Positions 523 through 17,748 of a DNA stretch of 64,000 bases are shown here, one piece after another. The notes under the pieces are model-generated. The model saw only the letters and a list, made by a program, of their open reading frames with translations, searched no databases and had not been told where the DNA came from. The position numbers and the translations under genes are program-made. The DNA comes from Flavobacteriales bacterium. GTDB lineage: Bacteria; Bacteroidota; Bacteroidia; Flavobacteriales; UBA7430. Location: positions 79,544 to 143,543 of the forward strand of contig CBFIGX010000005.1 of the NCBI GenBank assembly GCA_965662265.1, in the 5' to 3' direction. Numbering within the stretch: the first letter of the stretch is position 1; each line of letters starts with the position of its first letter.

Positions 523-640
523 GAAGGGAGGGCTTGTTAAAAGGTCACAGCTTGATAACCGTTATAAATTTAAAACAAATTTATGACCTTAAGCACTTTG
601 GGAAATAAAATATGTAAAATCAATACAATTCCGGCAATAA

Positions 641-1084
641 CTAGTAAGTGCTCATCCAGGTTTGAACACCTTTATTTTTGAGGGATTTCATGGTTTGAAT
701 GGCGTTTTCTTTTTCATAAAAACTTTCGAAAGCAACAAAATATAAGCCTCTGTCTTTTTCTTGATACATGGAGGAATTATAGCCTTTACTCTTTAGGCTT
801 TCCTTTAAATTGGTGGCATTATCTTCATTGGAAAAACACCCTGCTATTAAATGAAAAGTTTTCTTTTTAACTTTTTTAGAAGCAAGAATTTCTGCCACAG
901 AGCGAGTAGACTTTTTAACAGGTTCCTCTTTTACCACTTGAGAAGGATTAAATGTTAAGTGCATTAATTTTGCCTGAAATCCTAGCTCTTGGAGTGCCAT
1001 TGAACTCTGACCAGATGTAGATTGAGCAAGTAAAACTGAAGGAATAAACACAAACATCCAAAAAAGAGCGTTCATTATTTTCAT
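641..1084 (-). CDS. SPOR domain-containing (peptidoglycan-binding) secreted protein
   Basis: Has an N-terminal signal peptide (MKIMNALFWMFVFIPSVLLAQS). The C-terminal ~75 aa, FHLIAGCFSNEDNATNLKESLKSKGY...GLYFVAFESFYEKENAIQTMKSLKNKG, fits the SPOR beta-alpha-beta-beta repeat pattern. Confidence 0.55.
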   Translation of the reverse strand: MKIMNALFWMFVFIPSVLLAQSTSGQSSMALQELGFQAKLMHLTFNPSQVVKEEPVKKSTRSVAEILASKKVKKKTFHLIAGCFSNEDNATNLKESLKSKGYNSSMYQEKDRGLYFVAFESFYEKENAIQTMKSLKNKGVQTWMSTY

Positions 1085-1197
1085 CGCAATGGGGGGATTA
1101 AATTTTATACTAACTTATAAATTAAGTCTATAGAATATAGATTTACCCCTAAATACTTATTAACGAAATAGTGTTGAAATTTTCGATTTAAAATAGT

Positions 1198-1450
1198 TCA
1201 AGCCAAAGGGAGAAAGAAAATAAAGCATTTCCCTATTTCCCAAATGGTTCTATCCTACTCAATGCGCAGCATTGACACAGACGACCTTCAAGGGTTTTGA
1301 AGAAAATAAAAGCAGACACTTAGTGAAAATGGCGCTTTGAGAGCAGCAAAAGCCGACATTTGAAATTAGTGTATGTAAATAGTTGATGATAAAAGCCTTG
1401 TGAATCTTGACCTTTGCTTCCTTTGGGTCAAGCCAAAGGAAGAAAAAAGT
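1198..1450. repeat. Pair of ~22-bp direct repeats (TCAAGCCAAAGGnAGAAAnAA) about 230 bp apart; the second overlaps a 10-bp-stem hairpin
   Basis: Copy one is tcaagccaaagggagaaagaaaa at 1198. Copy two is tcaagccaaaggaagaaaaaag at 1428. The hairpin cttcctttgg-gtcaag-ccaaaggaag lies around 1418-1443. Confidence 0.5.
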
Positions 1451-1491
1451 ACCCTTTTTGAGTTCTGTTATTGGGCAAAAAAAAATGGAAA

Positions 1492-1716
1492 CTAGGGAAG
1501 TAAGTCCCTCAGCTCCACTAAATTTTTAGCCTTACCAACAATCAACATTTGGGCATCTAGCACATAAAAAGTAGGAGAGGCATACACGGCATAATCTTCT
1601 ACCATAGGGTTATCCCATTTTTCGGCAGCTCTAAGATGAATAAAATGGGAATATTTAGCGGCCTCAAGTTCCCAAGGGGCGAGAGATTCGTCTAAGCCAA
1701 CAAAACCTCCCTCTCT
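1492..1716 (-). pseudogene. Remnant of the C-terminal part of a thioredoxin-fold (TlpA/ResA-like) protein
   Basis: My minus-strand translation is REGGFVGLDESLAPWELEAAKYSHFIHLRAAEKWDNPMVEDYAVYASPTFYVLDAQMLIVGKAKNLVELRDLLP*. It is bounded upstream by an in-frame stop (1717-1719) and has no plausible start. The 'YxVxxxPTxYxLD' tail is typical of TlpA-like thiol-disulfide oxidoreductases. Confidence 0.35.
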
Positions 1717-2150
1717 TTAGTCGTCATAACAGTTTCAATTTAGAAATAACTTCCCCCCGGCAGTATTTCCGAAGCAAACCTGTTATATTGACGATTATGT
1801 ATAATCTATAATTCATCAATCGATGATGAATTGTATTTATTAATTCTGATAGTAAATTTAGTAGAGAAACAAATTCGAATTGCTATTGGCTTGTTATTTT
1901 AGATGTCGCATCACCTATTATATTTTTCTAGTAGTTTTATGCTACATAAACAGTAACATAAATTATGTGTAGGTACATATATATGCATAAATAATTAATA
2001 TTAAATACAAACATTCATAGGCATTTGACAGCAAAAATGGGTAAGTAAAAGGTGCTAAAAAGTCATTTTTATCGTGAAGACAACAAAAAATAATTGCGAA
2101 AGAGGATGATTGCTTTTGATCGTAAGAAGAAAAAATATTGAGTAATAGGC

Positions 2151-2612
2151 TTATAATCGTGAAGCCAAACGAATTTTGTCAAGTATATTATTCAAAAGCA
2201 CTTGTTCTTCGACGCTCAAGTTAATGACGTCTCTATTGAAGTCATCAACTAAAGCGTCGATATTCCGGAGCAATTCCTTCCCTTGTTTAGAAATACGAAT
2301 TAGCATTTGTCGTTTGTCTACAACATCTTGCTCCATAAGTACAAGCCCTCTTTTATTTAAGATAGCTAAGGTTCTGCTAGTATTAGGAGACTTGGATAAC
2401 ATTCGTGATTTGATATCATTTACCAGAATAGCCAAGCCATTTTGGCCTCTTAATATTCTAAGAATATTGTATTGTGGTTGTGTTAAATTATATGGTCGCA
2501 TCAGCTCAATAAACTTCGTGTTTAAAAAGGAGGAAGTAAATAAAATGTTTACAAACGACTTCTCACTTAAGGTTCTAAAACCGCGAGACTGGATTTCTTC
2601 TTCTATACTCAT
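2151..2612 (-). CDS. MarR-family transcriptional regulator (153 aa from the internal ATG)
   Basis: MSIEEEIQSRGF...MRPYNLTQPQYNILRILRGQNG..ILVNDIKSRMLSKSPNTSRTLAILNKRGLVLMEQDVVDKRQMLIRISKQGKELL matches the MarR winged-helix pattern. The 27 codons upstream in the track ORF are AT-rich promoter-like DNA. Confidence 0.8.
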   Translation of the reverse strand: MSIEEEIQSRGFRTLSEKSFVNILFTSSFLNTKFIELMRPYNLTQPQYNILRILRGQNGLAILVNDIKSRMLSKSPNTSRTLAILNKRGLVLMEQDVVDKRQMLIRISKQGKELLRNIDALVDDFNRDVINLSVEEQVLLNNILDKIRLASRL

Positions 2613-2681
2613 ACAACTAGGGATATAACAATTGACTATTACAATATTAATTATTATTTCTAAATATCTAGAAAAATTTAG

Positions 2682-2693
2682 TTGTATATACAA
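2682..2693. promoter_or_regulatory. Perfect 12-bp palindrome TTGTATATACAA in the MarR / pterin-operon divergent region
   Basis: Read directly at 2682-2693, 70 nt upstream of the MarR ATG. It is built from the same half-sites as the larger TTGTATA...TATACAA elements. Confidence 0.4.
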
Positions 2694-2863
2694 GTATATA
2701 TATAAATACTACCGTGAGGCTTGATATATCTACATTTAAAGATAGGTGCGTTATTTATAATTATTAAAACAAGTATTTTAAAACTACAGAAATCACTAAA
2801 AAAAGTCATAATAATCTATATGTTGAGATGTTCATTCAAGTCTATAATTTGGTATCAAGATAA

Positions 2864-2900
2864 TTTTGTATAACTTTGCTTTATTATAAATTATACAAAA
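2864..2900 (+). promoter_or_regulatory. Copy 3 of the inverted-repeat element TTTTGTATAA-N-TATACAAA (19-bp spacer between TTGTATA and TATACAA)
   Basis: Sequence is ttttgtataactttgctttattataaattatacaaaa. It ends 11 nt before the PTPS ATG at 2909. Confidence 0.45.
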
Positions 2901-2908
2901 ACAATCAC

Positions 2909-3325
2909 ATGAAAGAGGTCTATGTAATAAGACGCGAACGATTCAATTCTGCCCACCGATTATTTAATCCGGCTTGGGATGATGCTAAAAATGAAGCTGT
3001 TTTCGGCAAATGCGCCAACAAAAATTGGCACGGACACAACTACGAGTTGTTTGTTACCGTCAAAGGTCCTATTGACGAAGACACTGGTTATGTGATTGAT
3101 ATGAAAGTATTGAGTGACATAATCAAAACTAAGATTAGCAACAAGATGGATCACAAAAACTTAAATCTTGAAGTGGACTTTTTAAAAGATAAGATTCCAA
3201 CAGCAGAGCATATTGCCGTGGCTATTTACGAAGAGTTAGATGAAGCACTCAAGGCCATCAATAAAACCCTGCACGGTGTAAAATTATACGAAACAGAAAA
3301 CAATTATGTAGAATATTATGGATAA
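2909..3325 (+). CDS. 6-pyruvoyl-tetrahydropterin synthase (eukaryote-like PTPS type rather than QueD)
   Basis: MKEVYVIRRERFNSAHRL...FGKCANKNWHGHNYELFVTVKGPIDEDTGYVIDMKVL...DHKNLNLEV...KLYETENNYVEYYG. The Cys-x5-HGH spacing and overall similarity resemble animal PTPS. E. coli QueD has Cys-x3-HGH. The ATG at 2909 is preferred over the TTG at 2876. Confidence 0.85.
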   Translation: MKEVYVIRRERFNSAHRLFNPAWDDAKNEAVFGKCANKNWHGHNYELFVTVKGPIDEDTGYVIDMKVLSDIIKTKISNKMDHKNLNLEVDFLKDKIPTAEHIAVAIYEELDEALKAINKTLHGVKLYETENNYVEYYG

Positions 3326-4013
3326 AATATCACCTAAAAATGCACACGTTATAAGTCTTAACCCAGAACTTAAAAATTTAGGTTATGCAGACGGCCAGCA
3401 CATTAATGGGCCACTAAGCTCAGAAGATAAAACCAAAATGATAGAGCGAGCTGCATTGAAGTTTGGAGAATTCTTACATGAACTAGGCTGTGACTGGAAA
3501 AACGACCCTAACTCTAAAGATACACCAACAAGAGTAGCTAAGGCTTACGTTAATGATTTGTGGGCGGGGCGGTATGATAGTTTTCCTAAAATTACCACTT
3601 TTCCTAATGAAGAATACGACGGAATTATTTTTGAAGGCAACATCCCCATTGTTTCAATGTGTTCGCACCACCACCAAACAATTACTGGTAAAGCACACAT
3701 TGCTTACATTCCAAAAATAAATTCCAAAATTATTGGTTTGAGTAAACTCAATAGAATTGTAGAGCACTACGCCAGAAGAGGTGCAATACAAGAAAATTTA
3801 ACCGTTCGTATTCACGATTCAATCCATAGGATTATTGAAGATAATCGGGGTGTTGCAGTGATGATTGAAGCTGGCCATAATTGTGTTCAATGTAGAGGGG
3901 TGAAGCACTTTGGAACCAACATGAAGACCTCAAAGTTATCTGGAGAATTTATGGGAAAAGACAAAACTCGCCATGAGTTTTATGAGTTTATCAAGCAGTC
4001 TATTCAGCATTAA
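3318..4013 (+). CDS. folE: GTP cyclohydrolase I (FolE)
   Basis: Contains ...PIVSMCSHHHQTITGKAHIAYIP..KIIGLSKLNRIVEHYARRGAIQENLT... It overlaps the PTPS stop by 8 nt. Confidence 0.92.
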   Translation: MDKISPKNAHVISLNPELKNLGYADGQHINGPLSSEDKTKMIERAALKFGEFLHELGCDWKNDPNSKDTPTRVAKAYVNDLWAGRYDSFPKITTFPNEEYDGIIFEGNIPIVSMCSHHHQTITGKAHIAYIPKINSKIIGLSKLNRIVEHYARRGAIQENLTVRIHDSIHRIIEDNRGVAVMIEAGHNCVQCRGVKHFGTNMKTSKLSGEFMGKDKTRHEFYEFIKQSIQH

Positions 4014-4034
4014 TAAACATTTGACAAATTCGGT

Positions 4035-4457
4035 ATGCTCCTTAAAAAAAGTTTAGATAGAAAAGAAAAAGAAAAGGTCATTAGAGAAATCTGTGGCTCA
4101 TCTTTTTCAATCATCCACAAATTTAAACAGCAATTGTTTGGCTCTCCGCGATATCGGCTCATCCAGCTGCACCCAGACGAAAAAAATGTGATGGAGTCTA
4201 ACGATGTCATATACTGTAACTTTGAGCTCAAAGAAAAGGGTATTGCCTTATACTTTAGATTTATGCAAGATGAATATGCACTTGTTGCACGATATAATCA
4301 AACCACCTTTCAAACAAATCAAAATCAGCTTGATCTTCAACTAGGTAATTATATTGTACAACTAGATATACTATCCCCGAAATCTCATCAAACTTTTGTA
4401 CAAAAGCTCATTAGCTCCAAGTCTGTTTATCTGGAAAGCACCCAAATACCTCTATAA
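4035..4457 (+). CDS. Hypothetical protein (140 aa)
   Basis: Called only from the ORF and its same-strand, tightly spaced context. I recognise no family motif. Confidence 0.4.
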   Translation: MLLKKSLDRKEKEKVIREICGSSFSIIHKFKQQLFGSPRYRLIQLHPDEKNVMESNDVIYCNFELKEKGIALYFRFMQDEYALVARYNQTTFQTNQNQLDLQLGNYIVQLDILSPKSHQTFVQKLISSKSVYLESTQIPL

Positions 4458-4469
4458 GTCTAATCATTA

Positions 4470-5618
4470 ATGCCAATTATTGTGAAAATTCTTGTTATTT
4501 CATTGAGTGCATTAGCTGTCGCCTACTTTACATTTCAATTTAATGGTATAGAAACCCCAAGTTATAGGGTCCTAAAAATAATAGACGATATTGAAATTAG
4601 GTCATACGACAAAATGATCTATGCCTCTTACACACCTAAAGGACAAAACAACAATTCATCCTTTAGAACTGTAGCTGATTTTATTTTTGGTAGCAATAAT
4701 AAGAATGAAAAAATTGCCATGACTGCGCCAGTAGTTATAAAGCCACACAATTCTTATGAAATGGCATTTATCATGCCGAAAAGCTTTACCTTGTCTAACC
4801 TTCCTAAGCCTAATAATGAAGCTGTAAAAGTGTATGAAGTACCAGCTACTACTAAAGCTGTGATTGGCTACTCTGGCTACACCAATAATAACAAAGAAAA
4901 AAAATACATTAGCCAACTTAAAAACAGACTCGAAAAAAACAATATTAAGCATTTAAACGATTTTGAGGTACAAGTGTACGACCCACCCTATAAACCTATT
5001 GGACGTAAAAATGAAATCACTGTAAGCCTTGTGATGGATACAATTTCTAATTTAAATAACATGGCAAATAAAGAAAAAAATAAGGCTCCTAACACCAACA
5101 CCATTCACCTAGGAGGTGGTTGCTTTTGGTGTATAGAGGCCGTATATGAAAATATAAAAGGAGTAGTTCAAGTTGTCTCAGGCTACTCTGGTGGAGATAA
5201 AGAAACCGCAAATTATAAAGACGTTTGTACAGGTAAAACAAAGCATGCCGAAGTATGTAAAATTACATATAATGTTGATGAGGTTTCTCTGGAAACCCTA
5301 CTTAATTTATTTTTCACATTTCATGACCCTACAACCAAAAATAGACAGGGAAATGATATAGGCCCTCATTACAGGTCTGTAATTTTTTATAAAAACGATG
5401 CAGAACAAACTACTGCTCAAAAAGTAATTGATGCCATGAACTCTGAGGTTTACGACAACAAGATAGTGACAGAATTATCGCCATTACAACATTTCTATGA
5501 GGCTGAAAATTACCATCAAGATTATTTTGCTAATAATAAATCACAATCTTATTGCCAGATAGTTATTGCCCCTAAAGTTGCCAAACTTAGAGCAAAATAT
5601 AGTGTCTTCAGCAAATAA
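4470..5618 (+). CDS. msrA: Fusion protein: N-terminal membrane anchor/signal + SOUL heme-binding-like domain + peptide-methionine (S)-S-oxide reductase MsrA
   Basis: The N-terminal half is ...ETPSYRVLKIIDDIEIRSYDKMIYASYT...FRTVADFIFGSNNKNEKIAMTAPVV..., which is SOUL/HEBP-like. The C-terminal half is IHLGGGCFWCIEAVYENIKGVVQVVSGYSGG...HAEVCKITYN...FHDPTTKNRQGNDIGPHYRS, the MsrA GCFWC motif. No stop separates them. Confidence 0.8.
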   Translation: MPIIVKILVISLSALAVAYFTFQFNGIETPSYRVLKIIDDIEIRSYDKMIYASYTPKGQNNNSSFRTVADFIFGSNNKNEKIAMTAPVVIKPHNSYEMAFIMPKSFTLSNLPKPNNEAVKVYEVPATTKAVIGYSGYTNNNKEKKYISQLKNRLEKNNIKHLNDFEVQVYDPPYKPIGRKNEITVSLVMDTISNLNNMANKEKNKAPNTNTIHLGGGCFWCIEAVYENIKGVVQVVSGYSGGDKETANYKDVCTGKTKHAEVCKITYNVDEVSLETLLNLFFTFHDPTTKNRQGNDIGPHYRSVIFYKNDAEQTTAQKVIDAMNSEVYDNKIVTELSPLQHFYEAENYHQDYFANNKSQSYCQIVIAPKVAKLRAKYSVFSK

Positions 5619-5682
5619 TTTGACATATAAATTATGTACTATGAGGTCTTTTATATTTGGCTAAATTGATTAATTTAGACCA

Positions 5683-7428
5683 ATGACTAGTCCCAAGGAA
5701 ACTTATGAGAGCAACGCCTTAATACAGCGCTTGCCAAAACATCTAAAGCAGTTTATTAAACCGCAGCACTATGAGCAATATACTTGCATAGATCAGGCTG
5801 TTTGGCGATATGTGATGCGAAGAAATGTACACTACTTGCCACAGGTAGCGCACGAATCTTACCTAGAAGGTTTAAAAAAAACGGCAGTAGAAATAGATTC
5901 GATACCAAGCATGTACGGTATGAATCGTATACTAAAAGAAATAGGCTGGGCTGCTGTAGCTGTTGATGGATTTATCCCACCAAATGCTTTTATGGAATTT
6001 CAAGCCTACAAAGTACTCGTTATTGCATCAGACATAAGACAACTTAAACATATTGAATATACACCTGCTCCAGACATATTGCATGAAGCAGCTGGACATG
6101 CTCCAATAATAGCAAATCCAGACTATGCGGAATACCTACGTCGTTTGGGAGCTATAGGCGCCAAAGCCATACTATCCAAACATGATATAGAAGTATACGA
6201 AGCCGTTCGTAAGTTATCTTTTCTTAAAGAAGCAAAAAATAGTTCTGTTGAAGCGCTAGAAAAAGCAGCCGATAAGGTGGAAAAACTTCAAAATAAAAAG
6301 GTGGCCTTGTCTGAAATGGCCCAGGTGCAAAACTTACAGTGGTGGACTGTAGAATATGGCTTAATAGGAGAAATGGATTCTCCAAAGATTTATGGAGCTG
6401 GTCTGCTTTCTTCTATTGGCGAAAGCAAGTCTTGCTTAGAAAATCATGTTAACAAAATCCCCTACTCTGCCGATGCCTCACAACAGACTTTTGACATCAC
6501 AAAACCTCAGCCTCAGCTGTATGTGGCAAATGATTTTTCAAAACTCATGGAGGTATTGGAACAATTTGCCAATACTCTCAGCTTAAGAAAAGGAGGAACT
6601 TCAGGTCTTCATAGACTTATCGATTCCGCTTGTGTTGGAACTATCGAAATTAATACTGGACTTCAAATTTCTGGTATATTTTCAGAAATGATATGCAATG
6701 AAGATAACCAAGTAGTTTATTATATGACAAAAGGTCCCACCGCACTTTCTTACCGAGAAAAGGAACTTATTGGTCATGGTGTAACTTATCATAAACATGG
6801 CTTTAGCTCGCCACTGGGTAAACTGAAAAACATTAATTTGGCAATAGAAGATATGGGGCCATACGATTTAAAAGCATATAATTTTTACGATAACAAATGG
6901 CTTTCCTTTGAGTTTGAAAGTGGCGTTAAAGTTGAAGGACTTAATATTACTGGTATTAGAAATTTACAAGGTAAGCTGATGCTTATTCAATTAAAATCCT
7001 GTACGGTAACTTATAAAAATCGTGTATTATTTAAACCCGAATACGGCACTTACGACATGGCTATTGGGTGTGATATCGTTTCTGCTTTTGCTGGTAGTGC
7101 AGACCCAGATTCATTCCCTAATTTGTATCAAGCTTCTACTCTCTCTAGTAATAAAGAAATTTCAAACCGTTTGGATAAAGAGTTAGAAAATTTGTATCAA
7201 AAAATAAGAAACGCTAGAACAGGACAAGAAATCAACACAAATGAACTAACTATTCTTTGGACAACTATTCAAAATAAATATCCACACGAATGGCTACTTA
7301 TGCTGGAGCTCATTGAAGTTTCTGATAATGCCTTACTCAATAAAAGTATTGCATCTGAACTTAACAACATAGCTAATAATCAACCTCACTTAAAATCACT
7401 TATTAAAGACGGATTAGAATTACTCTAA
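5683..7428 (+). CDS. phhA: Aromatic amino acid (phenylalanine-4-) hydroxylase, long Bacteroidota form with ~280-aa C-terminal extension
   Basis: LHEAAGHAPIIANPDYAEYLRRLG and WWTVEYGLIGE...KIYGAGLLSSIGE match the HExxGH and E iron-ligand blocks of biopterin-dependent hydroxylases. Confidence 0.8.
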   Translation: MTSPKETYESNALIQRLPKHLKQFIKPQHYEQYTCIDQAVWRYVMRRNVHYLPQVAHESYLEGLKKTAVEIDSIPSMYGMNRILKEIGWAAVAVDGFIPPNAFMEFQAYKVLVIASDIRQLKHIEYTPAPDILHEAAGHAPIIANPDYAEYLRRLGAIGAKAILSKHDIEVYEAVRKLSFLKEAKNSSVEALEKAADKVEKLQNKKVALSEMAQVQNLQWWTVEYGLIGEMDSPKIYGAGLLSSIGESKSCLENHVNKIPYSADASQQTFDITKPQPQLYVANDFSKLMEVLEQFANTLSLRKGGTSGLHRLIDSACVGTIEINTGLQISGIFSEMICNEDNQVVYYMTKGPTALSYREKELIGHGVTYHKHGFSSPLGKLKNINLAIEDMGPYDLKAYNFYDNKWLSFEFESGVKVEGLNITGIRNLQGKLMLIQLKSCTVTYKNRVLFKPEYGTYDMAIGCDIVSAFAGSADPDSFPNLYQASTLSSNKEISNRLDKELENLYQKIRNARTGQEINTNELTILWTTIQNKYPHEWLLMLELIEVSDNALLNKSIASELNNIANNQPHLKSLIKDGLELL

Positions 7429-7511
7429 TTAAAAAAGTCTTAAAGCTTCTCTTTTTGAATATTAACATTCGTTAATTCCAGATTAACACCTGTATTTCAG
7501 ATCTTTATATA

Positions 7512-7547
7512 TTTTGTATAATATATTTTATAAATTTCTATACAAAA
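7512..7547 (+). promoter_or_regulatory. Copy 1 of the inverted-repeat element TTTTGTATAA-N-TATACAAA (18-bp spacer), upstream of the photolyase operon
   Basis: Sequence is ttttgtataatatattttataaatttctatacaaaa. It contains TTTG and TAAATTTC, close to the Bacteroidota -33 TTTG and -7 TAnnTTTG promoter boxes. It lies 86 nt upstream of the ATG at 7631. Confidence 0.5.
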
Positions 7548-7630
7548 ATTATTTTCTATGCTTAGAATCTCGTAATTTTAAGGGTGTTGAAAATGAAAAA
7601 GTGTGTTAAGAAACAGGTTACACCTCATTT

Positions 7631-7909
7631 ATGAAAACTTTAAGCTTAGAACAAATAGACCGAATCATTGAAATGGCTTGGGAAGATCGAACCCCATTCG
7701 AAGCCATAAACATTCAATTCAATATGTCTGAATCTGAAGTCATAAAACTAATGAGAAAGACTCTAAAAGAAAGCTCTTTCAAATTATGGCGAAAGCGAGT
7801 GCATACTGGCGTAAGTAAAAAACACAGTAAAAAAAGAAGTGAAGAAATAAAGAGATTTAAATGCAGCAGACAGAAGTCTATATCGAACAACAAGATATCG
7901 AAACGGTGA
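7631..7909 (+). CDS. TIGR03643 / DUF2805 family protein (cryptochrome-associated small protein)
   Basis: MKTLSLEQIDRIIEMAWEDRTPFEAINIQFNMSESEVIKLMRKTLKESSFKLWRKRV matches my recollection of the DUF2805 core (IIEMAWEDRTPFEAI...SFKLWRKRV). Confidence 0.7.
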   Translation: MKTLSLEQIDRIIEMAWEDRTPFEAINIQFNMSESEVIKLMRKTLKESSFKLWRKRVHTGVSKKHSKKRSEEIKRFKCSRQKSISNNKISKR

Positions 7910-8997
7910 GCTTTCCCACAAATATCGACATCATCTTAAAGCGTATTTCATCTATAGAACCGATTTCTTATGGATCGACAAGGAATTTTAAAGACGGAGC
8001 AGTTACCTATCTAGGTCCGTATATCTCTCGAGGAGTAATTTCTACCAAAAAGGTGTATGATCATATCAAAACATTAGATTTAAGATGGGATAAATGTGAA
8101 AAGCTAGTTCAAGAACTTGCATGGAGAGATTATTGGCAGCAAGTATGGTGTGTGAAAAAAAAATGGATTTTTAACGACTTCAAACATTCTCAACCCGACG
8201 TAATATCTCATCAAATGCCTAGTGCAATAATACATGCTAATACTGGTATCGAGGCAGTAGACACAGCAATTAATGATCTGTATACAACCGGATATATGCA
8301 TAATCACATGCGTATGTATGTGGCTTCAATTTGCTGCAATATAGCTCGGTGTCATTGGAGTGTTCCAGCAAAATGGATGTATGCACACCTAAAAGATGGT
8401 GATTTAGCTAGTAATCATTTAAGTTGGCAGTGGGTTGCTGGAAGTAATTCCTTCAAGAAATATTATGCAAATCAAAGTAATATCAACAAATATTTTGAGA
8501 GCAATCAAAGTGGCACTTTTTTAGACTACTCTTATGAAGATTTACCAAATATAAACATCCCAAAAATACTAAAAGAAACATCAGATTTTAAACTAAAAAC
8601 TGATGTAACAGGTATTGACAAACCAACACTATTAAACGGTAAAGAGACTCTTGTATACACTTATTATAACCTGGACCCCTTTTGGTATAGAAATACAGAA
8701 ATACAAAGAGTTTTACTATTAGAGCCTTCGATATTTGAAACATATCCAGTAACAAAAAAATGCCTGGATTTTACTCTTGAATTAGCAAAAAACATAAAAG
8801 ATATTAAGATTGTTGTAGGAGAATTTAAAGACTTACAAAACAGCATTCCTAACAGTAAACTTATCTATAAAGAACACCCGCTTTTCGAACACTATTCAGG
8901 GCAGCAAGAAAACAGAGAGTGGCTGAGCTCAACTCGTGGTTACTACAGATCTTTTTTCTCATTTTGGAAAAAATGCAAAAAAGAAATCAAATGGTAA
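7861..8997 (+). CDS. Atypical photolyase/cryptochrome-family protein: FAD-binding domain at the N-terminus, alpha/beta-like region at the C-terminus
   Basis: Residues ~35-215 read [25 protein letters not shown]...[12 protein letters not shown]...[29 protein letters not shown]...[17 protein letters not shown], which are FAD_binding_7 blocks. The start could be ATG 7861 (49-nt overlap) or GTG 7906 (GTGA overlap with the upstream stop). Confidence 0.7.
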
Positions 8998-10478
8998 AAG
9001 AGCCTCTAAATATTGTGTGGTTAAAACGAGATTTAAGACTTCAAGATCATGCTCCTTTTTTTTATGCTGAATCCTCTAATTTCCGCTACTTACCTATCTA
9101 TATTTATGAACCTTCATTACTGATCCACCCAGACAGTTCTATGAGGCACCATCAATTTGTTTACCACTCTTTGCTTGAAATGAACACACACCTAAAGGCG
9201 TTTCAACGAGAGATTATGATATTTCATAAAGAAGCATCTGAGGTGTTCGAGATGCTTTCCAAAAAATTCCATATCAATACTGTATATTCCTACCAAGAAT
9301 CTGGAATTCGTAAAAGCTGGGAGAGAGATAATAAAATAGGACACTTATTCAAAATTAAAAATATTGTTTGGCGTGAATTCCAAAGAGATGGCATCTTAAG
9401 AGGTATTAAAAACAGAAATAATTGGGATAAGCAATGGCATAAATATATAAGCGACTCCTGTTTTGAAAACAAATATTCTCAAAATGGATATAAAAGCTTC
9501 AAAAACCCTTACCCGCTAAATGCAACATTTAAGTCCAAACTTATAGAATACCCAAGCGCATTTCAAAAAGCAGGTCAAAATTTTGCCTATGCCTATTTAA
9601 AATCTTTTTGTGAAGATCGAGGAAAACACTATGCTAAAAACATATCTAAACCTTTAGAAAGTAGAAGGTCATGTGGTCGATTGTCTCCCTATATAGCTTG
9701 GGGTAATATAAGTATAAGACAAGTTTATCAGTATGTAAAACTACATCCAAACTTCCATCATTACAAGCAAAGTTTTAGAGGTTTATTAACCCGCCTAAAA
9801 TGGCATTGTCATTTTATACAAAAGTTTGAAGTAGAATGTGACTATGAAACGAGGTGTATAAATAGAGGTTATGAGAGCATGAGTTACTCTAACAATCCTG
9901 AACTAATAAAGGCATGGAAAAATGGTAATACTGGCTTCCCTCTTATAGATGCTTGTATGCGATGTGTAAAGGAAACGGGTTGGATAAACTTTAGAATGCG
10001 TGCTATGCTAGTCTCTTTATTTTGTCATCACTTCGACTGCAATTGGAAAAAAGGAGTTTACCACCTTAGTCGTTTATTTTTAGATTACGAACCGGGTATT
10101 CACTTCACTCAATTTCAGATGCAGGCAGGTACAACTGGAATAAATACAATAAGAATGTATAACCCTGTTAAACAATCTAAAGATCACGACCCTCAAGGTA
10201 TTTTCATAAAAAGATGGGTAGAGGAATTGAAAGAGGTACCCGTAAACTTTATTCATGAACCTTGGACTATGACCGCTATGGACAAAGCATTTTTGGGTAT
10301 TAATGTTGACTACCCTCTACCAGCAATTAACCTTGTAGAAAGTGGTAGTAAAGCACGAAAAAAAATATGGGGACATCGAAAAAATGAACTTGTAAAAATT
10401 GAGAATCAAAGAATTATAAAACTACATACCAGAGCAAATGCTTCTAAGAAAAACAGATATTCACAACCTAGAACGTAA
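8991..10478 (+). CDS. Photolyase/cryptochrome-family flavoprotein, divergent subfamily (full alpha/beta + FAD-binding architecture)
   Basis: [16 protein letters not shown] (N-terminal alpha/beta domain) ... [21 protein letters not shown] ... [12 protein letters not shown] ... [31 protein letters not shown]...[39 protein letters not shown] chose ATG 8991, which sits inside the upstream ...AAATGGTAA stop context. ATG 8973 and ATG 8919 are also possible. Confidence 0.75.
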
Positions 10479-11070
10479 ATACAGATTAAACTTAATCAAT
10501 TCGATAACTGGTATTAAACCAGCGAATTTAGTTGGCACAACTTCATTAGAAGGTCGAGATAATTTAGCTATATTTTCTTCCTTAGTTCACCTAGGGTCCA
10601 ACCCTGCACAACTTGGGCTTGTAATGCGACCACAAACACATGTTAAGAAAGATACCTATACAAATATTACAAATACTGGGTATTACACTATAAACCACAT
10701 CACAGAATCGTTTACTAAAAAAGCCCATTACACCTCTGCTAAACTCGAACATGAAAGTTCTGAATTTGACGTAATGCATATCAAAAGAGAACACATTAAT
10801 GGATTTAAAGCACCCTTTGTGGCATCTAGTCCAATTAAGATAGGTATGAGTCACTTAGAAACTCTAAAGCTGCCAAATGGTTGCTTATTTATTGTTGGAG
10901 AAATTGTATTGATACAATATCCAGATGAAGTAGTGAATCATTTAGGGCAAGTAAAATTAGACCTATACAAAGGAGTAGGAATTGGCGGGTTAAACAATTA
11001 TTATCAACTAAAAAAAATAGCCTCCTACCCTTATGTTCGTGTTGATGAAATTCCTGATTTTAATGACTAA
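10438..11070 (+). CDS. Flavin reductase-like (FMN-binding split-barrel) family protein
   Basis: [51 protein letters not shown] resembles Bacteroidota flavin reductase family proteins. It overlaps the upstream gene by 41 nt. Confidence 0.55.
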
Positions 11071-11200
11071 GAGGCAATTAGAAGTTAAGATATGTGTGGT
11101 ATGTAATCTACCCTATAGCTGGCGAAAAAAATGGGAACGAGACTGGGAAAAAGTAAAATATTGTAGCGAACGCTGTAGACGAAACAAAAATAAAAAATGA
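11063..11200 (+). CDS. DUF2256 zinc-ribbon protein (45 aa), not in the supplied ORF track
   Basis: My translation is [45 protein letters not shown]. It carries CxxC...WRKKW..W..VKYCSxxCR, the DUF2256 signature as I recall it. It has an 8-nt overlap upstream and an ATGA overlap with the next gene. Confidence 0.75.
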
Positions 11201-12714
11201 ATGCCGTAAACATTATTTTTCCACATCAACTATTTGAACGTAGTGTTCTATTAGAAAATGAATTCATTATTTATCTAATTGAAGAACATTTGTTTTTCAA
11301 AGAACTTTCATTTCACAAGAAAAAAATTGCTTTTCATAGGGCAAGTATGAAAAGCTATGAGCATTATCTAAAAAGTATAGGGAAGTCTGTTTATTACATT
11401 GAATCTAGCCATCAATTGGCTGATATTAGAAATTTCAAACATGAAATAGATAAGCAAGGTATCGAACAAGTCAATGTTATAGATCCTACTGATAATTGGC
11501 TACAGAAACGACTTAAAAATACTACCAAAAAATGTAGTTTAAAAGTATTCGATAGTCTTCATTTTTTGAATAGCACAGAGGATTTAAGTACTTTTTTTAG
11601 GTCCGAAAAAAAATCTTTTTTTCAAACCACTTTTTACAAAGCACAGAGAAAAAAACACAAACTACTCCTTGACTCTGATCAAAAACCTTTGGGAGGCAAA
11701 TGGACTTATGACGCAGAAAATCGAAAAAAATATCCGAAAAGTAAAACACCTCCCCAAGTAACTCGCCCAAAACCATCGAAATTTTGGGATGAAGCAGTTA
11801 CATACACCGAAACACATTTTACTTGCAACCTAGGTCAACTAGATGAAAAATGCTTTTATCCTATAGATTTTAAAGGAGCTCGAATGTGGCTAAGTGATTT
11901 TTTAAAAACAAGATTTTATGATTTTGGTGCCTATGAAGACGCAATGGTGAAAGAGAATTATATCTTACACCACAGTCTTCTGTCTCCACTTATGAATTCT
12001 GGGTTATTAACACCAAGGGAAGTCATAAACTCTAGTATTAAATATGCCGAGACAGAGAACATACCAATCAATTCTTTAGAAGGCTTTGTGCGACAGGTTA
12101 TTGGGTGGCGAGAATTTATACGAGGAATGTATATCTGTAAAGGCTCTTTTTCGAGGACTCATAATTTCTGGAAATTTAACCATCCTATACCACAATCATT
12201 GTACCGTGGCACCACAGGTATCGAGCCATTAGATCATAGTATAAAAACAGCACTAAAAACTGGTTACTGCCACCATATCGAACGTCTAATGATTTTAGGG
12301 AACTTCATGCTACTTTGCGAATTTAATCCTAATGGAGTTTACAAATGGTTTATGGAACTTTTTATAGATGCCTACGATTGGGTGATGGTTCCTAATGTAT
12401 ACGGAATGTGTTTATTTGCTGATGGAGGTACCTTTGCTACAAAACCATATATTGGAGGCTCTAATTATATTAAAAAAATGAGTAATTACAAACGTGGATC
12501 TTGGGAGAAATGTTGGGATGGCTTATTTTGGCGCTTTGTTATTAAACAAAAATCATTTTTTAAATCAAATCCTAGAACATCAATGCTAGCGTATAGCCTA
12601 GATAAAATGACACCTGAAAAGCAGGAAATACACTTGCAACATGCCAATAAGTTTATAAATAATAATTTTGTTTGGGACGACGCTATGGTTATTGAAGAAC
12701 ATGCAACGAACTAG
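11197..12714 (+). CDS. CryPro / FeS-BCP-type ((6-4) photolyase PhrB/CryB-like) photolyase-related protein
   Basis: NIIFPHQLF..., [67 protein letters not shown] and [16 protein letters not shown]...[16 protein letters not shown] all fit the COG3046 'photolyase-related protein' pattern. Confidence 0.8.
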
Positions 12715-12735
12715 TATAATATTAAATCAAAAAAA

Positions 12736-13614
12736 ATGAATCGAAACACATTTTTAAAAAATAGCTTATTCACTACTCTAGCAGCACTTTTTACAAGTAA
12801 AGTGAGTATCGGAAAATCAGTATTACCTGAAAACTCTACCTATTCTCTACTCTCAAAACAAGTAGGCTTTAACCATTTACCTAATAAGGAACAAAAAACA
12901 ATGAACACAGTATTACATAAATCCAACACACGTGGTCATGCCAACCATGGCTGGCTTAACACCCACCACAGTTTTAGCTTTGCCAATTACCATAACCCAG
13001 AACGAATGAGATTTGGTGTTCTTAGAGTTCTTAACGACGATCGTGTTGAGGCCGGTAGAGGATTTGGGACACATTCACATGACAATATGGAAATTATCTC
13101 TATACCACTAGAAGGCGATTTAGAACACAAAGACAGCATGGGAAATACAGCCATAATAAAACAAGGAGATATACAGGTAATGAGTGCGGGAACAGGAATA
13201 TCACATTCTGAATTCAATAAAAATACCGATAAAGCAGTCAAGTTTCTTCAAATATGGTTGTTCCCAAACAAAATAAATGTAGTTCCTCGCTACGATCAAA
13301 TTGCGTTAAACCGTTTAGAAAAAGAAAACGAATTGTATCAAATACTATCGCCAAATAAAAATGATGATGGCGTATGGATACATCAGGATGCCTGGTTTCA
13401 TATGGGTAAATATACTAAACAACATTCTGAAACTTACGCTCTAAACAAAGAAGGAAATGGGGCGTATATCTTTATACTTAAAGGTCAGGCTGTGGTAAAT
13501 GGACAGTCGTTAACCGACAGAGATGGGATGGGTGTATGGAATACCCAAATGCTAAAACTAGAGGCTTCAACAGGAACTGAGCTTCTTGTTATGGAAGTTC
13601 CTATGAATATTTAA
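12736..13614 (+). CDS. Pirin family protein (bicupin), with a 55-aa N-terminal extension resembling an export signal
   Basis: RGHANHGWLNTHHSFSFANYHNPERMRFGVLRVLNDDRVEAGRGFGTHSHDNMEIISIPLEGDLEHKDSMGN is the classic pirin N-terminal cupin. The N-terminus is MNRNTFLKNSLFTTLAALFTSKV. An alternative start is M56 at 12901. Confidence 0.85.
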   Translation: MNRNTFLKNSLFTTLAALFTSKVSIGKSVLPENSTYSLLSKQVGFNHLPNKEQKTMNTVLHKSNTRGHANHGWLNTHHSFSFANYHNPERMRFGVLRVLNDDRVEAGRGFGTHSHDNMEIISIPLEGDLEHKDSMGNTAIIKQGDIQVMSAGTGISHSEFNKNTDKAVKFLQIWLFPNKINVVPRYDQIALNRLEKENELYQILSPNKNDDGVWIHQDAWFHMGKYTKQHSETYALNKEGNGAYIFILKGQAVVNGQSLTDRDGMGVWNTQMLKLEASTGTELLVMEVPMNI

Positions 13615-13625
13615 ACAGATATTAT

Positions 13626-14912
13626 ATGTATAAAGAAGATATTTCTGTTATATGGTTCAGAAGAGACTTAAGACTATCAGACAATCACGCCTTGTCTGAA
13701 GCGTTAAAAGGTAATTTCCCAGTGCTTCCTTTATTTATTTTTGACGAAGATATTACGGATAACCTTCCAGTTAACGATCCTAGAATTAACTTTATCCATG
13801 GCCAACTCGAATTACTAGCAAGCCGTTTATTTGAATTTGATAGTGGTATATATTGCAAAAAGGGCAAAGTCAAAAACGTATGGCAAGAACTTATATCTAA
13901 ATACAACATCAAAACTGTATATGCCAATGAAGATTACGAACCTTATGCAAAAAAAAGAGATGAAGAGATTGATCAACTATTAGCTACTTATGGCTCAAAA
14001 CTTCAATTATTTAAAGATCAAGTCATATTTGCCAAAGACGAAGTATTAAAAGCAGATAATAAGCCCTATACGGTATACACTCCGTATAAAAACAAATGGC
14101 TTAGCAATTTTAATAATTCCATGCTTGAAGCATATAAGTGGCCAGAAAATCCTAAGTTCTTTAAATTATCTTATTCAATTCCTAGCCTAGAATCCATGGG
14201 CTTTAAATCCTCATCAATTCAGGTAAAAGATTACGATATTTCGAAGCTAGATGAGTACGAGGCACAACGCAACTTTCCGGGTACAGACAAGACGAGCTAT
14301 CTCTCACCACATTTAAGATTTGGAACCATAAGTGTTAGATATATTTTTGCTCAAACCAAGCAACATGAAACCTTTAGAAACGAATTGATATGGCGAGAAT
14401 TTTTCATGCAAATCTTGTATCACTTTCCCAAGGTGGTAAATTCAAATTTTAAATCTAAATACGACCGAATTCCATGGCGCAATAATGAGCTAGAGTTTGA
14501 AAAATGGAAGGTTGGACAAACTGGATATCCAATGGTAGATGCAGGTATGCGTCAGTTAAACGCAACGGGCTATATGCATAACAGGGTTCGTATGGTAGTT
14601 GCCGGATTTTTATGTAAGCATCTCTTAATAGACTGGCGTTGGGGCGAAGCATACTTTGCAGAAAAATTGCTCGACTACGAATTATCATCCAATAACGGTA
14701 ACTGGCAATGGGCTGCCGGAACAGGCTGTGATGCAGCTCCCTATTTTAGAGTGTTTAACCCTACAGAACAGGTTAAAAAATTTGACAAACAATTGGTATA
14801 TATCAAAAAATGGGTGCCAGAATATGAAAGCTTAGAGTATCTTTCTCCTCTGGTAGAACATAAGATGGCAAGACTAAGAGCTATTAACACATACAAAACT
14901 GCCCTTTTGTAA
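13626..14912 (+). CDS. phr: Deoxyribodipyrimidine (CPD) photolyase, class I-like
   Basis: VIWFRRDLRLSDNHAL..., LSPHLRFGTISVR, LIWREFF, and GQTGYPMVDAGMRQLNATGYMHNRVRMVVAGFL..DWRWGEAYFAEKLLDYELSSNNGNWQWAAGTGCDAAPYFRVFNPTEQ closely parallel the E. coli Phr blocks. Confidence 0.88.
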   Translation: MYKEDISVIWFRRDLRLSDNHALSEALKGNFPVLPLFIFDEDITDNLPVNDPRINFIHGQLELLASRLFEFDSGIYCKKGKVKNVWQELISKYNIKTVYANEDYEPYAKKRDEEIDQLLATYGSKLQLFKDQVIFAKDEVLKADNKPYTVYTPYKNKWLSNFNNSMLEAYKWPENPKFFKLSYSIPSLESMGFKSSSIQVKDYDISKLDEYEAQRNFPGTDKTSYLSPHLRFGTISVRYIFAQTKQHETFRNELIWREFFMQILYHFPKVVNSNFKSKYDRIPWRNNELEFEKWKVGQTGYPMVDAGMRQLNATGYMHNRVRMVVAGFLCKHLLIDWRWGEAYFAEKLLDYELSSNNGNWQWAAGTGCDAAPYFRVFNPTEQVKKFDKQLVYIKKWVPEYESLEYLSPLVEHKMARLRAINTYKTALL

Positions 14913-14965
14913 TTTAGGTAGTTAATATTGGATGAATAATAGCTACTTAAGATAATATTCATTAG

Positions 14966-15000
14966 TTTTGTATAATATTATTGTATAATTTCTATACAAA
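14966..15000 (+). promoter_or_regulatory. Copy 2 of the inverted-repeat element TTTTGTATAA-N-TATACAAA (18-bp spacer)
   Basis: Sequence is ttttgtataatattattgtataatttctatacaaa. By hand alignment, 29 of 35 positions are identical to the 7512 copy. It lies 33 nt upstream of the ATG at 15032. Confidence 0.5.
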
Positions 15001-15031
15001 TTAATTGAATCTAATTTAATAAGCTACGTCT

Positions 15032-15205
15032 ATGTTTTTTTTCGGCAAATCATCTAAAACAAAAAAATTAAGAGCACAATACAAAAAGAAAATGGAGGAA
15101 TCCTTTAAGATGTCTAAGATAGACCGTAAAGCCAGTGACAAATTAATGATGGAAGCGGAAGAGATTATGCAAAAGCTTAAAAAAGAAGAAGCTAAAGACA
15201 AGTAA
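15032..15205 (+). CDS. Small lysine/glutamate-rich protein (57 aa), Lacal_2735-like family; not in the ORF track
   Basis: My translation is MFFFGKSSKTKKLRAQYKKKMEESFKMSKIDRKASDKLMMEAEEIMQKLKKEEAKDK*. It resembles the small conserved Bacteroidota protein family with pattern MFG..KK....KL...Y..L..E......RK.SD....EA. The antisense track ORF 15016..15201 is probably spurious. Confidence 0.5.
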   Translation: MFFFGKSSKTKKLRAQYKKKMEESFKMSKIDRKASDKLMMEAEEIMQKLKKEEAKDK

Positions 15206-15238
15206 TCACACTATTTATCATCAATTTCCAATACTCGT

Positions 15239-15784
15239 ATGCAACAATTTCTGCTATTCATAGCGCTCATTTTTATGCCAATTCCCTCTTCTAACCCTAT
15301 TACGATATTCGATTTCAAAAACTCTTCTGAACCAGAAAAGTGGTATATTGTCAACGATGATGTTATGGGTGGTGTTTCTACTTCTAAAATAAAAATAAAC
15401 AAGGAAGGGCATGCTGTATTTTCAGGACGTGTATCTACTGCTAACAATGGTGGGTTTGCTTCTGTACGTTACAGATTTGACCCGATATCTACTATTGGTT
15501 GTGCCAAAATATTGTTAAGAGTTAAAGGGGATGAAAAACCTTATCAATTAAGAGTAAAATCAAGTGCATCTGATTACTATTCTTATGTCTGTTCATTTGA
15601 AACATCTAAGGACTGGGAGTTAATAGAAGTTAATTTGAAAGATATGTATCCCAGCTTCCGTGGAATGAAATTACCCATGGGAAATTTTGATGAGACGTCT
15701 ATTGAAGAGCTATCTATATTGATTGGTAACAAGAAAGATGAATCATTTGAGTTATTCATCGATCATATTAAATTAGGAAATTAA
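15239..15784 (+). CDS. CIA30 (complex I intermediate-associated protein 30-like) family protein
   Basis: WYIVNDDVMGGVSTSKIKINKEGHAVFSGRVSTANNGGFASVRYRF is the characteristic CIA30 N-terminal block. Confidence 0.75.
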   Translation: MQQFLLFIALIFMPIPSSNPITIFDFKNSSEPEKWYIVNDDVMGGVSTSKIKINKEGHAVFSGRVSTANNGGFASVRYRFDPISTIGCAKILLRVKGDEKPYQLRVKSSASDYYSYVCSFETSKDWELIEVNLKDMYPSFRGMKLPMGNFDETSIEELSILIGNKKDESFELFIDHIKLGN

Positions 15785-15795
15785 CGTAGAAGTAT

Positions 15796-15824
15796 AAAAA
15801 AGCCACCTTAAAGGTGGCTTTTTT
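15796..15824. terminator. Bidirectional intrinsic terminator hairpin between convergent genes
   Basis: Sequence is aaaaaAGCCACCttaaGGTGGCTttttt. It has a perfect stem flanked by an A-run and a T-run. Confidence 0.8.
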
Positions 15825-15848
15825 CTTATTGAGCTTATAGGTATATTC

Positions 15849-16760
15849 TTACTTTATATGTTTTTCTACACGACCGTTGCTATATAAGTAAAATAATAAC
15901 TGCCCTGACATATGCTGATGATGCTCTCTTCCCAATATATCAATCATCTTAATCGGACTTACATCCTCATGAACTAATTCTTCGTATAGACCCACATTAT
16001 TCCAGCTTATTGGGTAGCTACAAACTACATTAGCTGATCCTGCAAAGAGCCCTTCTACCACACAAAGTTCTCCAGTAAAAGGCATTTCTAAAGCTTCGGA
16101 TACAATTAATGCCCTTGTTTCACCCATCCCTGGCCCGGTTATAGCATAAACGTTTCCAGCAGATTCTAATGTTTCGGTTGCTATGGTTTCACCCATGGCA
16201 TCTCTTAACATGAGTCCAGCGTATGGAATAGAATAATTATTAAAAGAAGTTTCTATAGTTACAAACAGGGTATCAAAACTTATCTCAGATGATAGGGCTA
16301 TTGGGAGTTGGGCATTTAAACTTATGGAGTCGCAAAAATTAAAACATTCAGAGCAACACTGACCATCAAGCTCTTGCCAGATACCATTACAAGGAATTCC
16401 CATTTCTTCAGCACAATCAATGATTATTTCTACAAACGAACCATTGCTAAGGCATTCTCCTGTTTCACAAGGGTTATTAGGGTTTTCCCAAAAGCCTGCT
16501 TGATAAATTTCTATACCCGAGGTAGACGTGCAAAGTGGATCATTCGTTGAGGTACATTCTCCTGGTGAGTATTCATATATACTAGAGCATTCCGCAAAGC
16601 CATAATTGCTATATGTAACTCCATCGCAACCGCAAACAGGGTTATACTCCATAGTGGCCATGCAGCCTGGAATGAGAACAGCTATACAAGAATCTATAGA
16701 CTGCGCTATCACAGAATGAGTGAGCAAAGACAAAAGGATTGAAAAAAGAACAGATTTCAT
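15849..16760 (-). CDS. Secreted Cys-rich protein with Kazal-like and VWC-like modules and a T9SS C-terminal sorting domain
   Basis: It has a signal peptide and CMATMEYNPVCGCDGVTYSNYGFAEC (Kazal-like PVCGxDGxTYxN). PCETGECLSNGSFVEIIIDCAEEMGIPCNGIWQELDGQCCSEC ends in the G-x-CC-x-x-C pattern of VWC/chordin-type modules. The C-terminal IKMIDILGRE....GQLLFYLYSNGRVEKHIK is a T9SS type-A-like tail. Confidence 0.6.
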   Translation of the reverse strand: MKSVLFSILLSLLTHSVIAQSIDSCIAVLIPGCMATMEYNPVCGCDGVTYSNYGFAECSSIYEYSPGECTSTNDPLCTSTSGIEIYQAGFWENPNNPCETGECLSNGSFVEIIIDCAEEMGIPCNGIWQELDGQCCSECFNFCDSISLNAQLPIALSSEISFDTLFVTIETSFNNYSIPYAGLMLRDAMGETIATETLESAGNVYAITGPGMGETRALIVSEALEMPFTGELCVVEGLFAGSANVVCSYPISWNNVGLYEELVHEDVSPIKMIDILGREHHQHMSGQLLFYLYSNGRVEKHIK

Positions 16761-16941
16761 ACAAATTCAATAATATGTTTAGGTCTAAATCTAGTTAAAA
16801 ATATAGAAGAATGTATACGATTTTAAAAAGATTATACATTTTGAGCTATCATAGAGCTTAATAAGAGATATACTAACCTATTATGGCAAAAAAACAGCAA
16901 CTAAAGTCGCTGTTTATCATTACTTACACATGTTCAAAGTC

Positions 16942-17238: not shown

Positions 17239-17289
17239 GATAATTGTTTTTTTTTATTTTTCTGGTGAAATATTTAATTAGGAAATAAA

Positions 17290-17340: not shown

Positions 17341-17354
17341 GCTAAAAGAATTAC

Positions 17355-17735: not shown

Positions 17736-17748
17736 GGTTTTAATGACG

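Follow-up and report, generated by a model that had tools for sequence, protein, structure and literature searches.

We analysed a 64,000-nucleotide stretch of a Flavobacteriales bacterium (contig CBFIGX010000005.1, positions 79,544 to 143,543; hereafter the window), in which three intergenic copies of a palindromic element, sites a, b and c, precede three transcription units. The first unit carries the pterin synthesis genes PTPS and folE, the second is headed by a DUF2805 gene and includes four photolyase/cryptochrome paralogues, and the third consists of a Lacal_2735-family gene and a gene for a CIA30-domain protein. Gene identities in the window were assigned by Pfam and NCBIfam profile matches, and the features are listed in Table 1. 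The evidence below indicates that the three sites are very probably operators of a conserved light regulon. Their most likely binder, with a probability that we put at approximately 0.6, is a repressor of the CarH/LitR type, a B12 photoreceptor whose gene would lie outside the window.

Three palindromic sites in the window

The pattern TTGTATA-N(14-24)-TATACAA has three matches in the 64 kb, at 2866-2898, 7514-7545 and 14968-14999, and none elsewhere in the window. All three are promoter-proximal, with gaps to the start codon of 8-10 nt (site a), approximately 85 nt (site b) and 31-33 nt (site c), and the distances between their heptamers are 19, 18 and 18, respectively. According to dinucleotide-preserving shuffles (n = 100), 0.02 paired matches would be expected in the window for gaps of 14-24 and 0.04 for gaps of 8-38, against the three observed, and none of the 100 shuffles reached three. 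The heptamer half-site alone is not enriched (26 copies observed and 22 expected in the window), and therefore the signal lies in the pairing and spacing of the half-sites. No further convincing paired site was found in the window with up to three mismatches allowed. Site c also contains a third, inner repeat (TTGTATAA at 14981), which is not conserved in the sister lineage described below and was therefore left out of the element.

The sites had been proposed in an earlier note made from the sequence alone, and the pattern search places all three where that note had put them. It had also stated that the paired, fixed-spacing arrangement occurs only at these promoter-proximal positions, which agrees with the search, and the isolated half-sites it listed (8651, 32613, 59614 and 61033) are real. 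The spacings it gave (18, 18 and 19) are the right values in the wrong order for sites a, b and c. Similarly, its gap of 33 nt from site c to the start codon holds, whereas the 11 nt given for site a does not. Profile matches confirmed its gene identities, except that the photolyase operon, counted there as eight genes, has seven clear ones.

Table 1 Sites, predicted promoter and genes discussed in the text (window coordinates)
Feature	Position	Strand	Remarks
MarR-family regulator	2151-2612	-	Pfam; divergent from site a
Predicted sigma-A promoter of PTPS operon	2848-2878	+	-33 TTTG 2848-2851, N19, -7 TAACTTTG 2871-2878
Site a, putative operator palindrome	2864-2900	.	core TGTATAA-N17-TTATACA at 2867-2897; pattern match
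Target operon 1	2909-7428	+	Pfam, NCBIfam
PTPS	2909-3325	+	operon 1, first gene
GTP cyclohydrolase I (FolE)	3318-4013	+	operon 1
140-aa protein of uncharacterised family	4035-4457	+	operon 1
SOUL+MsrA fusion	4470-5618	+	operon 1
581-aa aromatic amino acid hydroxylase	5683-7428	+	operon 1, last gene; NCBIfam PRK14056 type, E = 3e-237
Site b, putative operator palindrome	7512-7547	.	core TGTATAA-N16-CTATACA at 7515-7544; pattern match
Target operon 2	7631-14912	+	seven genes; Pfam, NCBIfam; in order DUF2805/TIGR03643, FAD_binding_7-only cryptochrome-like (378 aa), photolyase/cryptochrome (519 aa), flavin reductase, DPRP-type photolyase-related (505 aa), pirin, class I CPD photolyase (428 aa)
Site c, putative operator palindrome	14966-15000	.	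core TGTATAA-N16-CTATACA at 14969-14998; pattern match
Target unit 3	15032-15784	+	Pfam, NCBIfam
Lacal_2735-family small protein (57 aa)	15032-15205	+	unit 3
CIA30-domain protein	15239-15784	+	unit 3
aa, amino acids.

Conservation in close relatives

The lineage of the window is represented only by metagenome contigs. Comparison with a 95% relative (L005) shows divergence in the spacer of site a and in the sequence upstream, but none in its arms. A 92% sister lineage (L329 and L330) was reached via the photolyase gene. Its arms are identical to those of the window at site b (L330) and at site c (L329 and L330). At site c, 17 positions separate the 10-nt left arm from the right arm, and 6-7 of them have changed. 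Given that the arms are invariant and the spacers diverge in these 92-95% relatives, what appears to be constrained is the sequence of the arms and how far apart they lie, and not the spacer sequence. Outside the window, the exact TGTATAA-type motif was found only in contigs of the same lineage (L001-L005 and L329-L330) and in a Flavobacteriales metagenome-assembled genome (L007). In the latter, a gene for a homologue of the 140-aa protein heads a DUF2805-photolyase operon, and the motif directly adjoins the start of that gene.

A sister motif in other Bacteroidota genomes

As a wider sample, we used 80 Bacteroidota genome loci (L006-L085, 1.4 Mb in total) anchored on the DUF2805 gene. Many genera, including Aequorivita, Lutibacter, Polaribacter, Spongiivirga, Croceivirga, Robertkochia, Pelagihabitans, Ulvibacter and Arcticibacterium, carry TGTTTAA-N16-TTAAACA, a sister motif that has the same 30-bp layout and differs by T/A for A/T at position 4 of each arm. 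Its gap is strongly preferred: 16 matches in the 1.4 Mb have a gap of 16, one has a gap of 15, two have a gap of 21, and there are none at the other gaps from 6 to 28; 0.05 matches would be expected for each gap. The sister motif precedes the orthologous DUF2805/photolyase cluster in approximately 20 of the genome loci. Conservation before orthologous operons, proposed as a check in the earlier note, is thus observed across Bacteroidota as the same 7-N16-7 architecture with one base per arm different. In 19 loci, the first gene of the cluster is a Lacal_2735 gene, and every one of these loci carries a site, 7-90 bp upstream of that gene in 18 and one gene further up in the remaining one. Lacal_2735 is therefore the first gene behind the commonest site elsewhere, and site c of the window is the positional equivalent of that site. 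The position-4 switch, from T/A to A/T in both arms, occurs at all three sites of the window and in L007, and as judged from these sequences it suggests a shifted or relaxed repressor specificity.

Two Spongiivirga genomes have a 21-bp-gap variant, TTGTTTAATGTTAAACG...TTAAACAA with an extra inner TGTTAAAC (L028, 17195-17231; L029, 15736-15772). In both, a minus-strand gene located a few kilobases downstream of the photolyase cluster has this variant at its start. In the Chryseobacterium/Weeksellaceae loci (among L006-L031 and others, approximately 6900-10276), the operon is a different one that ends with DUF2805, comprising an open reading frame (ORF) of approximately 440 aa, a small Cys-rich ORF, a cryptochrome-like gene, DPRP and DUF2805. 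No TGTTTAA-type site was seen near this operon, so these genera may regulate the cluster differently.

Regulon content in metagenomes

A scan of metagenomes with TTTTGTTTAA-N16-TTAAACA returned at least 120 loci (L209-L328), with 126 sites among the matches listed. As a control, we used 120 viral-contig loci matching nearly the same pattern, which have the same coding density (74%). Sites within open frames of at least 150 codons made up 16 of the 126 among the listed metagenome matches vs 71 of the 120 in the viral control. With 59% of them in open frames, the viral-contig matches look like chance; they were rejected as real sites and kept as the control only.

Many families of the window recur directly behind the sister motif in the listed metagenome matches, namely PTPS (at least five loci), FolE, class I photolyase, CIA30 (L321), SOUL/MsrA, flavin reductase, DUF2805 and the 140-aa protein. 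Families outside the window's set are also found there, including crtI-like phytoene desaturase (at least five loci), proteorhodopsin (at least three; L238, L288 and L316) and short-chain dehydrogenases. Further families behind the motif are SRPBCC-like (at least 10 loci), DUF2911 (at least six) and fasciclin-domain proteins (at least 14 metagenome loci). The photoprotection targets are PTPS-folE and the four photolyase/cryptochrome paralogues in the window, and crtI, proteorhodopsin, photolyase, PTPS and folE in relatives. The position of proteorhodopsin behind the sister motif would put a proton pump in the same regulon as photolyases. Among the genome loci, L061 likewise has the sister motif (19367-19395) directly upstream of a proteorhodopsin gene.

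Regulatory genes were recovered as well. An extracytoplasmic function (ECF) sigma gene stands behind the sister motif in at least 11 metagenome loci, several of them with two tandem sites, and a TetR_C_23-family regulator stands behind or divergent from it in at least six metagenome loci and in L078. Tandem full sister sites, 41-62 bp apart from start to start, were seen in L217 (559-650), L232 (2638-2708), L261 (8378-8462), L289 (11934-12006) and L297 (1899-1969), mostly before ECF sigma genes and in one case before PTPS. They suggest cooperative binding at the most tightly controlled promoters.

Nature of the element

A scan with the Bacteroidetes consensus TTTG-N17-23-TAnnTTTG predicted a sigma-A promoter for the PTPS operon, with a -7 box that coincides in part with the left arm of site a. 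Both boxes are kept in L005, and many sister-motif sites show this TAACTTTG arrangement as well. In Lacal_2735 operons of other genera, spacer positions 12-15 contain TTG, and the right arm is followed by a conserved TATCTTTA box. The two arms of the element are exact reverse complements of each other, and in the window's lineage the change affected the two at once. With the sites oriented by the downstream gene, the spacer composition is also symmetric, T-rich at 10-13 and A-rich at 19-21, with C at 8 and G at 23. These symmetric arms and spacer, together with uncompensated deviations in single arms, fit a symmetric protein complex and not an ECF promoter or an RNA stem.

It is accordingly improbable that the element is the -35/-10 promoter of a LitS-like ECF sigma factor, which would explain the fixed 16-bp spacer. 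Rigid spacers of approximately 16 bp are typical of ECF promoters, the position of the motif before at least 11 ECF sigma genes resembles autoregulation, and in Streptomyces LitR acts via the ECF sigma LitS (PMC11519972). However, the known sigma-LitS promoter, GCATCCR-N15-CVGAAD, is asymmetric (PMC11519972), whereas the arms here are inverted repeats that changed jointly (T to A and A to T), and the oriented frequency matrix is symmetric. Moreover, the sites often abut the start codon, which leaves no room for a transcription start past the '-10', tandem sites exist, and a canonical sigma-A -7 box lies inside site a. We regard an RNA hairpin in the 5' leader, acting as an attenuator or stability element, or a chance AT-rich repeat as very improbable. 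The arms can pair, and site a folds at -6.6 kcal/mol (z = -3.2), but sites b and c fold weakly (-4.5 and -5.1 kcal/mol, z approximately -1.3), and no Rfam match was found at the three sites (E <= 1, window 1-20000). Deviations in single arms of relatives, such as TGTCTAA, TGTTGAA and TTAAACG, are uncompensated, and the predicted start site of the PTPS unit falls inside site a. A chance repeat is excluded by the window shuffles, the comparison with the viral control and the gap-specific enrichment.

CarH/LitR homologues beside the sister motif

Proteins with MerR_1, B12-binding_2 and B12-binding domains were found by tblastn beside the sister motif in 17 of the 120 listed metagenome loci, and in none of the 120 viral control loci or the 80 genome loci. 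For approximately 11 of these 17 litR genes, a site with 0-2 mismatches and a gap of N15-17 lies no more than approximately 40 bp from the gene's own start codon, and for most of the 11 the distance is approximately 10 bp or less. In most of the 17 loci, a site also precedes the next gene, an ECF sigma gene or crtI. A litR gene is typically accompanied by two or three sites, one of them on its own start codon, and N17 variants of the sister motif occur in these loci, as in site a of the window. The motif-linked homologue in L304 matches Thermus thermophilus CarH (5c8d, E = 3e-16), and the homologues align over both domains. Light-responsive cobalamin binding has been associated with the signature GxxW, EH, GxxH and GxxxP (PMC11796333). 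All four motif-linked homologues checked (L240, L283, L295 and L304) have GxxW, Wx9EH, ExHxxG and GxxxP, with a strict GxxH only in L283.

On this basis, we propose a repressor that combines a MerR-type DNA-binding domain at its N-terminus with an adenosyl-B12 (AdoB12) photosensor at its C-terminus and is encoded elsewhere in the genome. In the dark, by analogy with characterised CarH/LitR proteins, its B12-bound oligomer would sit on the operators. As an operator would overlap or abut a sigma-A promoter, and at site a would cover the predicted -7 box and start site, transcription would be blocked. Light would photolyse the cofactor, the oligomer would fall apart, and the PTPS-folE, photolyase and Lacal_2735-CIA30 units would be transcribed. 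We infer that LitR and not another regulon member is the binder and that it is present in this genome and, from CarH/LitR proteins of other phyla, that it represses and responds to light and B12. The earlier note had read the element as a repressor operator of a light or photo-oxidative regulon, and that view is supported by the conserved arms, by the shared layout before orthologous genes, by regulon members such as crtI, proteorhodopsin, photolyases and a CarH/LitR photoreceptor gene, and by the promoter overlap predicted at site a.

Other candidate regulators

The window itself contains one classical regulator adjoining the regulon, the MarR gene divergent from site a, and in this lineage it could be the repressor on the three palindromes, sensing photo-oxidative or electrophile stress and not light itself. 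A 12-bp perfect palindrome (TTGTATATACAA at 2682-2693) built of the same heptamers as the arms lies approximately 70 bp upstream of the MarR start and is kept in L005. In addition, a MarR-type regulator governs light-inducible carotenogenesis in Corynebacterium (PMC6739363), and one 40% homologue of the window's protein heads a YceI-pirin-FMN reductase operon. We nevertheless consider this assignment unlikely, as the 7-N16-7 architecture and the regulon are common to approximately 140 loci with no MarR gene nearby, and L007 has the TGTATAA variant with no MarR gene in 15 kb. No MarR gene was found near the motif in 200 other loci (L006-L085 and L209-L328). A search for relatives among 5.8 billion proteins yielded close ones at only 100% and 95% identity, with all other matches at or below 46%. 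The 23-bp centre-to-centre distance of the element is also unusual for a single MarR dimer. MarR as a conserved regulator was rejected: three homologues of approximately 40% lie by an esterase gene, the YceI-pirin-FMN reductase operon and unrelated genes, with no association with photolyases or the motif. The MarR neighbour is thus probably not the binder of the 30-bp palindromes, and TTGTATATACAA may be its own operator or have no connection with it. Two same-lineage contigs (L003 and L004, 5300-8454), compared with window positions 1-2150, are identical in the MarR-PTPS region and different just beyond MarR, where the SPOR and M43 peptidase genes of the window are replaced by different ORFs together with another gene of the MarR family; MarR therefore sits at a strain-level synteny break.

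It is also doubtful that another regulatory member of the regulon binds the sites, either the TetR_C_23 protein as a pair of dimers or the DUF2805/cryptochrome-like pair. The former stands directly behind or divergent from the motif in the metagenome loci mentioned above and in L078, and TetR-family proteins are usually autoregulated via palindromes. With 17 motif-linked loci, however, the litR genes exceed those for TetR_C_23 more than twofold, and only LitR accounts for the light-related content of the regulon. DUF2805 looks by eye like a sigma-region-4-type helix-turn-helix and always stands beside a truncated cryptochrome. In one version of this reading, it would be the DNA-binding subunit, the adjacent cryptochrome-like protein without an N-terminal photolyase domain would be the flavin light sensor, and litR would be a mere target. 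This version appears hardly probable, since DUF2805 is approximately 70-85% identical across lineages with or without the motif and with either half-site variant. No PDB sequence matched DUF2805, even at E <= 10. Clustering all ORFs of 24 motif-bearing genome loci revealed no regulator common to the DUF2805 clusters.

Several points weigh against the CarH/LitR reading. No CarH/LitR gene is present in the 64-kb window or in approximately 10 kb to its left, and the regulator of the TGTATAA variant was thus not seen there; tblastn with LitR, ECF sigma and TetR-like queries found no match in the window, and ten mid-size ORFs in its 20-64 kb part encode enzymes or transporters and no other regulators. 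Linkage to the motif is no proof of binding, and litR could be a target of the regulon instead of its regulator; the TetR_C_23 regulator (6-7 loci) and the ECF sigma gene (at least 11 loci) are likewise recurrent neighbours. Several Bacteroidota, e.g., Chryseobacterium and L032 (Crocinitomicaceae), have no recognisable motif near the DUF2805 cluster. The consensus scan found no convincing -33/-7 pair at sites b and c; promoter placement is convincing only for site a, and there it agrees with the promoter overlap described in the earlier note. Finally, the element does not match a characterised LitR operator. The Thermus CarH operator consists of tandem 11-bp direct repeats, whereas the operator here would consist of two inverted 7-mers, 16 (or 17) bp apart. 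The class II LitR operator, TGTACA-N12-TGTACA (24 bp; 6-N12-6), has only the outer TGT...ACA in common with TGT(A/T)TAA-N16-TTA(T/A)ACA (30 bp).

Genes behind the sites

The 581-aa hydroxylase at the end of operon 1 suggests that the pterin from the PTPS-folE unit also serves as a hydroxylase cofactor, beyond its use as a photolyase antenna. In operon 2, the 378-aa cryptochrome-like protein (7861-8997) has an FAD-binding domain only, at its N-terminus, followed by a C-terminal extension of approximately 170 aa with no fold assignment. Its family stands directly after DUF2805 in many Bacteroidota, with 47-60% identity. Upstream, a 13-codon ORF (MKKCVKKQVTPHL) at 7594-7635 ends in ATGA and overlaps the DUF2805 start. 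In L330, a 2-nt deletion brings this ORF into frame with DUF2805 and fuses the two, and the DUF2805 protein is called there with a length of 104 aa; a separate leader peptide therefore looks unlikely. The region beyond unit 3 (15849-17735) encodes a trio that is kept in L329/L330: two proteins of 303 and 98 aa, rich in Cys and predicted to be secreted, and beside them a small Fur-family protein (126 aa) with a C-terminal CxxC...CxxC.

Implications

Proteorhodopsin, carotenoid and photolyase genes of Bacteroidota are known to respond to light, and the proposed system, if true, would offer a sequence-level operator model for the light response of marine and freshwater members. It would place TIGR03643/DUF2805, Lacal_2735, DUF2452, CIA30-domain proteins, the 140-aa family, the SOUL-MsrA fusion and the truncated cryptochrome in a light-induced regulon, and this membership would be a starting point for the function of these uncharacterised families. 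The pairing of pterin synthesis with photolyases may then reflect pterin antenna cofactors or a tetrahydrobiopterin-dependent hydroxylase. Furthermore, the coordinated T-to-A switch at every site of one lineage would represent operator-repressor co-evolution, and the half-site variants could supply orthogonal B12-photoreceptor/operator pairs for optogenetics.

Comparison with known systems

The mechanism of light-induced carotenogenesis in Chryseobacterium was called unknown in 2020 (PMC7064467). The literature we searched, which was limited in reach, contained no description of a Bacteroidota LitR operator, of the 7-N16-7 geometry or of this regulon content, and a prior description is possible. 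One of the known systems, CrtR of Corynebacterium glutamicum, is a MarR-type regulator whose gene is divergent from a photoprotection operon (PMC6739363, PMC5401885), as in the window. Unlike CrtR, the window's MarR has no conserved tie to the motif or to photolyase genes, and the architecture is common to genomes without a MarR gene nearby.

The class II LitR proteins PplR1 and PmlR2 of Pseudomonas putida and P. mendocina control a light-induced regulon with phrB, cryB, folE, folM, folX and a short-chain dehydrogenase, and act as repressors at a TGT...ACA-type dyad overlapping the -35 (PMC9758184). They differ in that they do not bind B12, need a light-oxygen-voltage (LOV) partner and belong to another phylum. 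The earlier note knew of no regulator or motif of this form in Flavobacteriia. This holds for the operator geometry, for which no description was found, and not for the kind of regulator: since LitR/CarH light regulons with folE and photolyase are known in other phyla (PMC9758184), the likely regulator is not unknown in kind.

Class I CarH/LitR proteins are AdoB12-dependent MerR-type photoreceptor repressors of Myxococcus, Thermus, Bacillus megaterium and Streptomyces. Homologues with their MerR_1, B12-binding_2 and B12-binding domains and the light-sensing signature sit on the sister motif in related Bacteroidota, the regulator gene appears to be autoregulated, and at site a the putative operator overlaps the predicted promoter. 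The apparent targets include carotenoid genes and an adjacent ECF sigma gene, reminiscent of the litR-litS (ECF sigma) pairs in Streptomyces (PMC11519972). In contrast to class I systems, the regulon here consists mostly of photolyase/cryptochrome paralogues, pterin synthesis genes and uncharacterised small proteins. The system is thus of a known kind, and differs in its operator geometry and its lineage-specific half-site variant.

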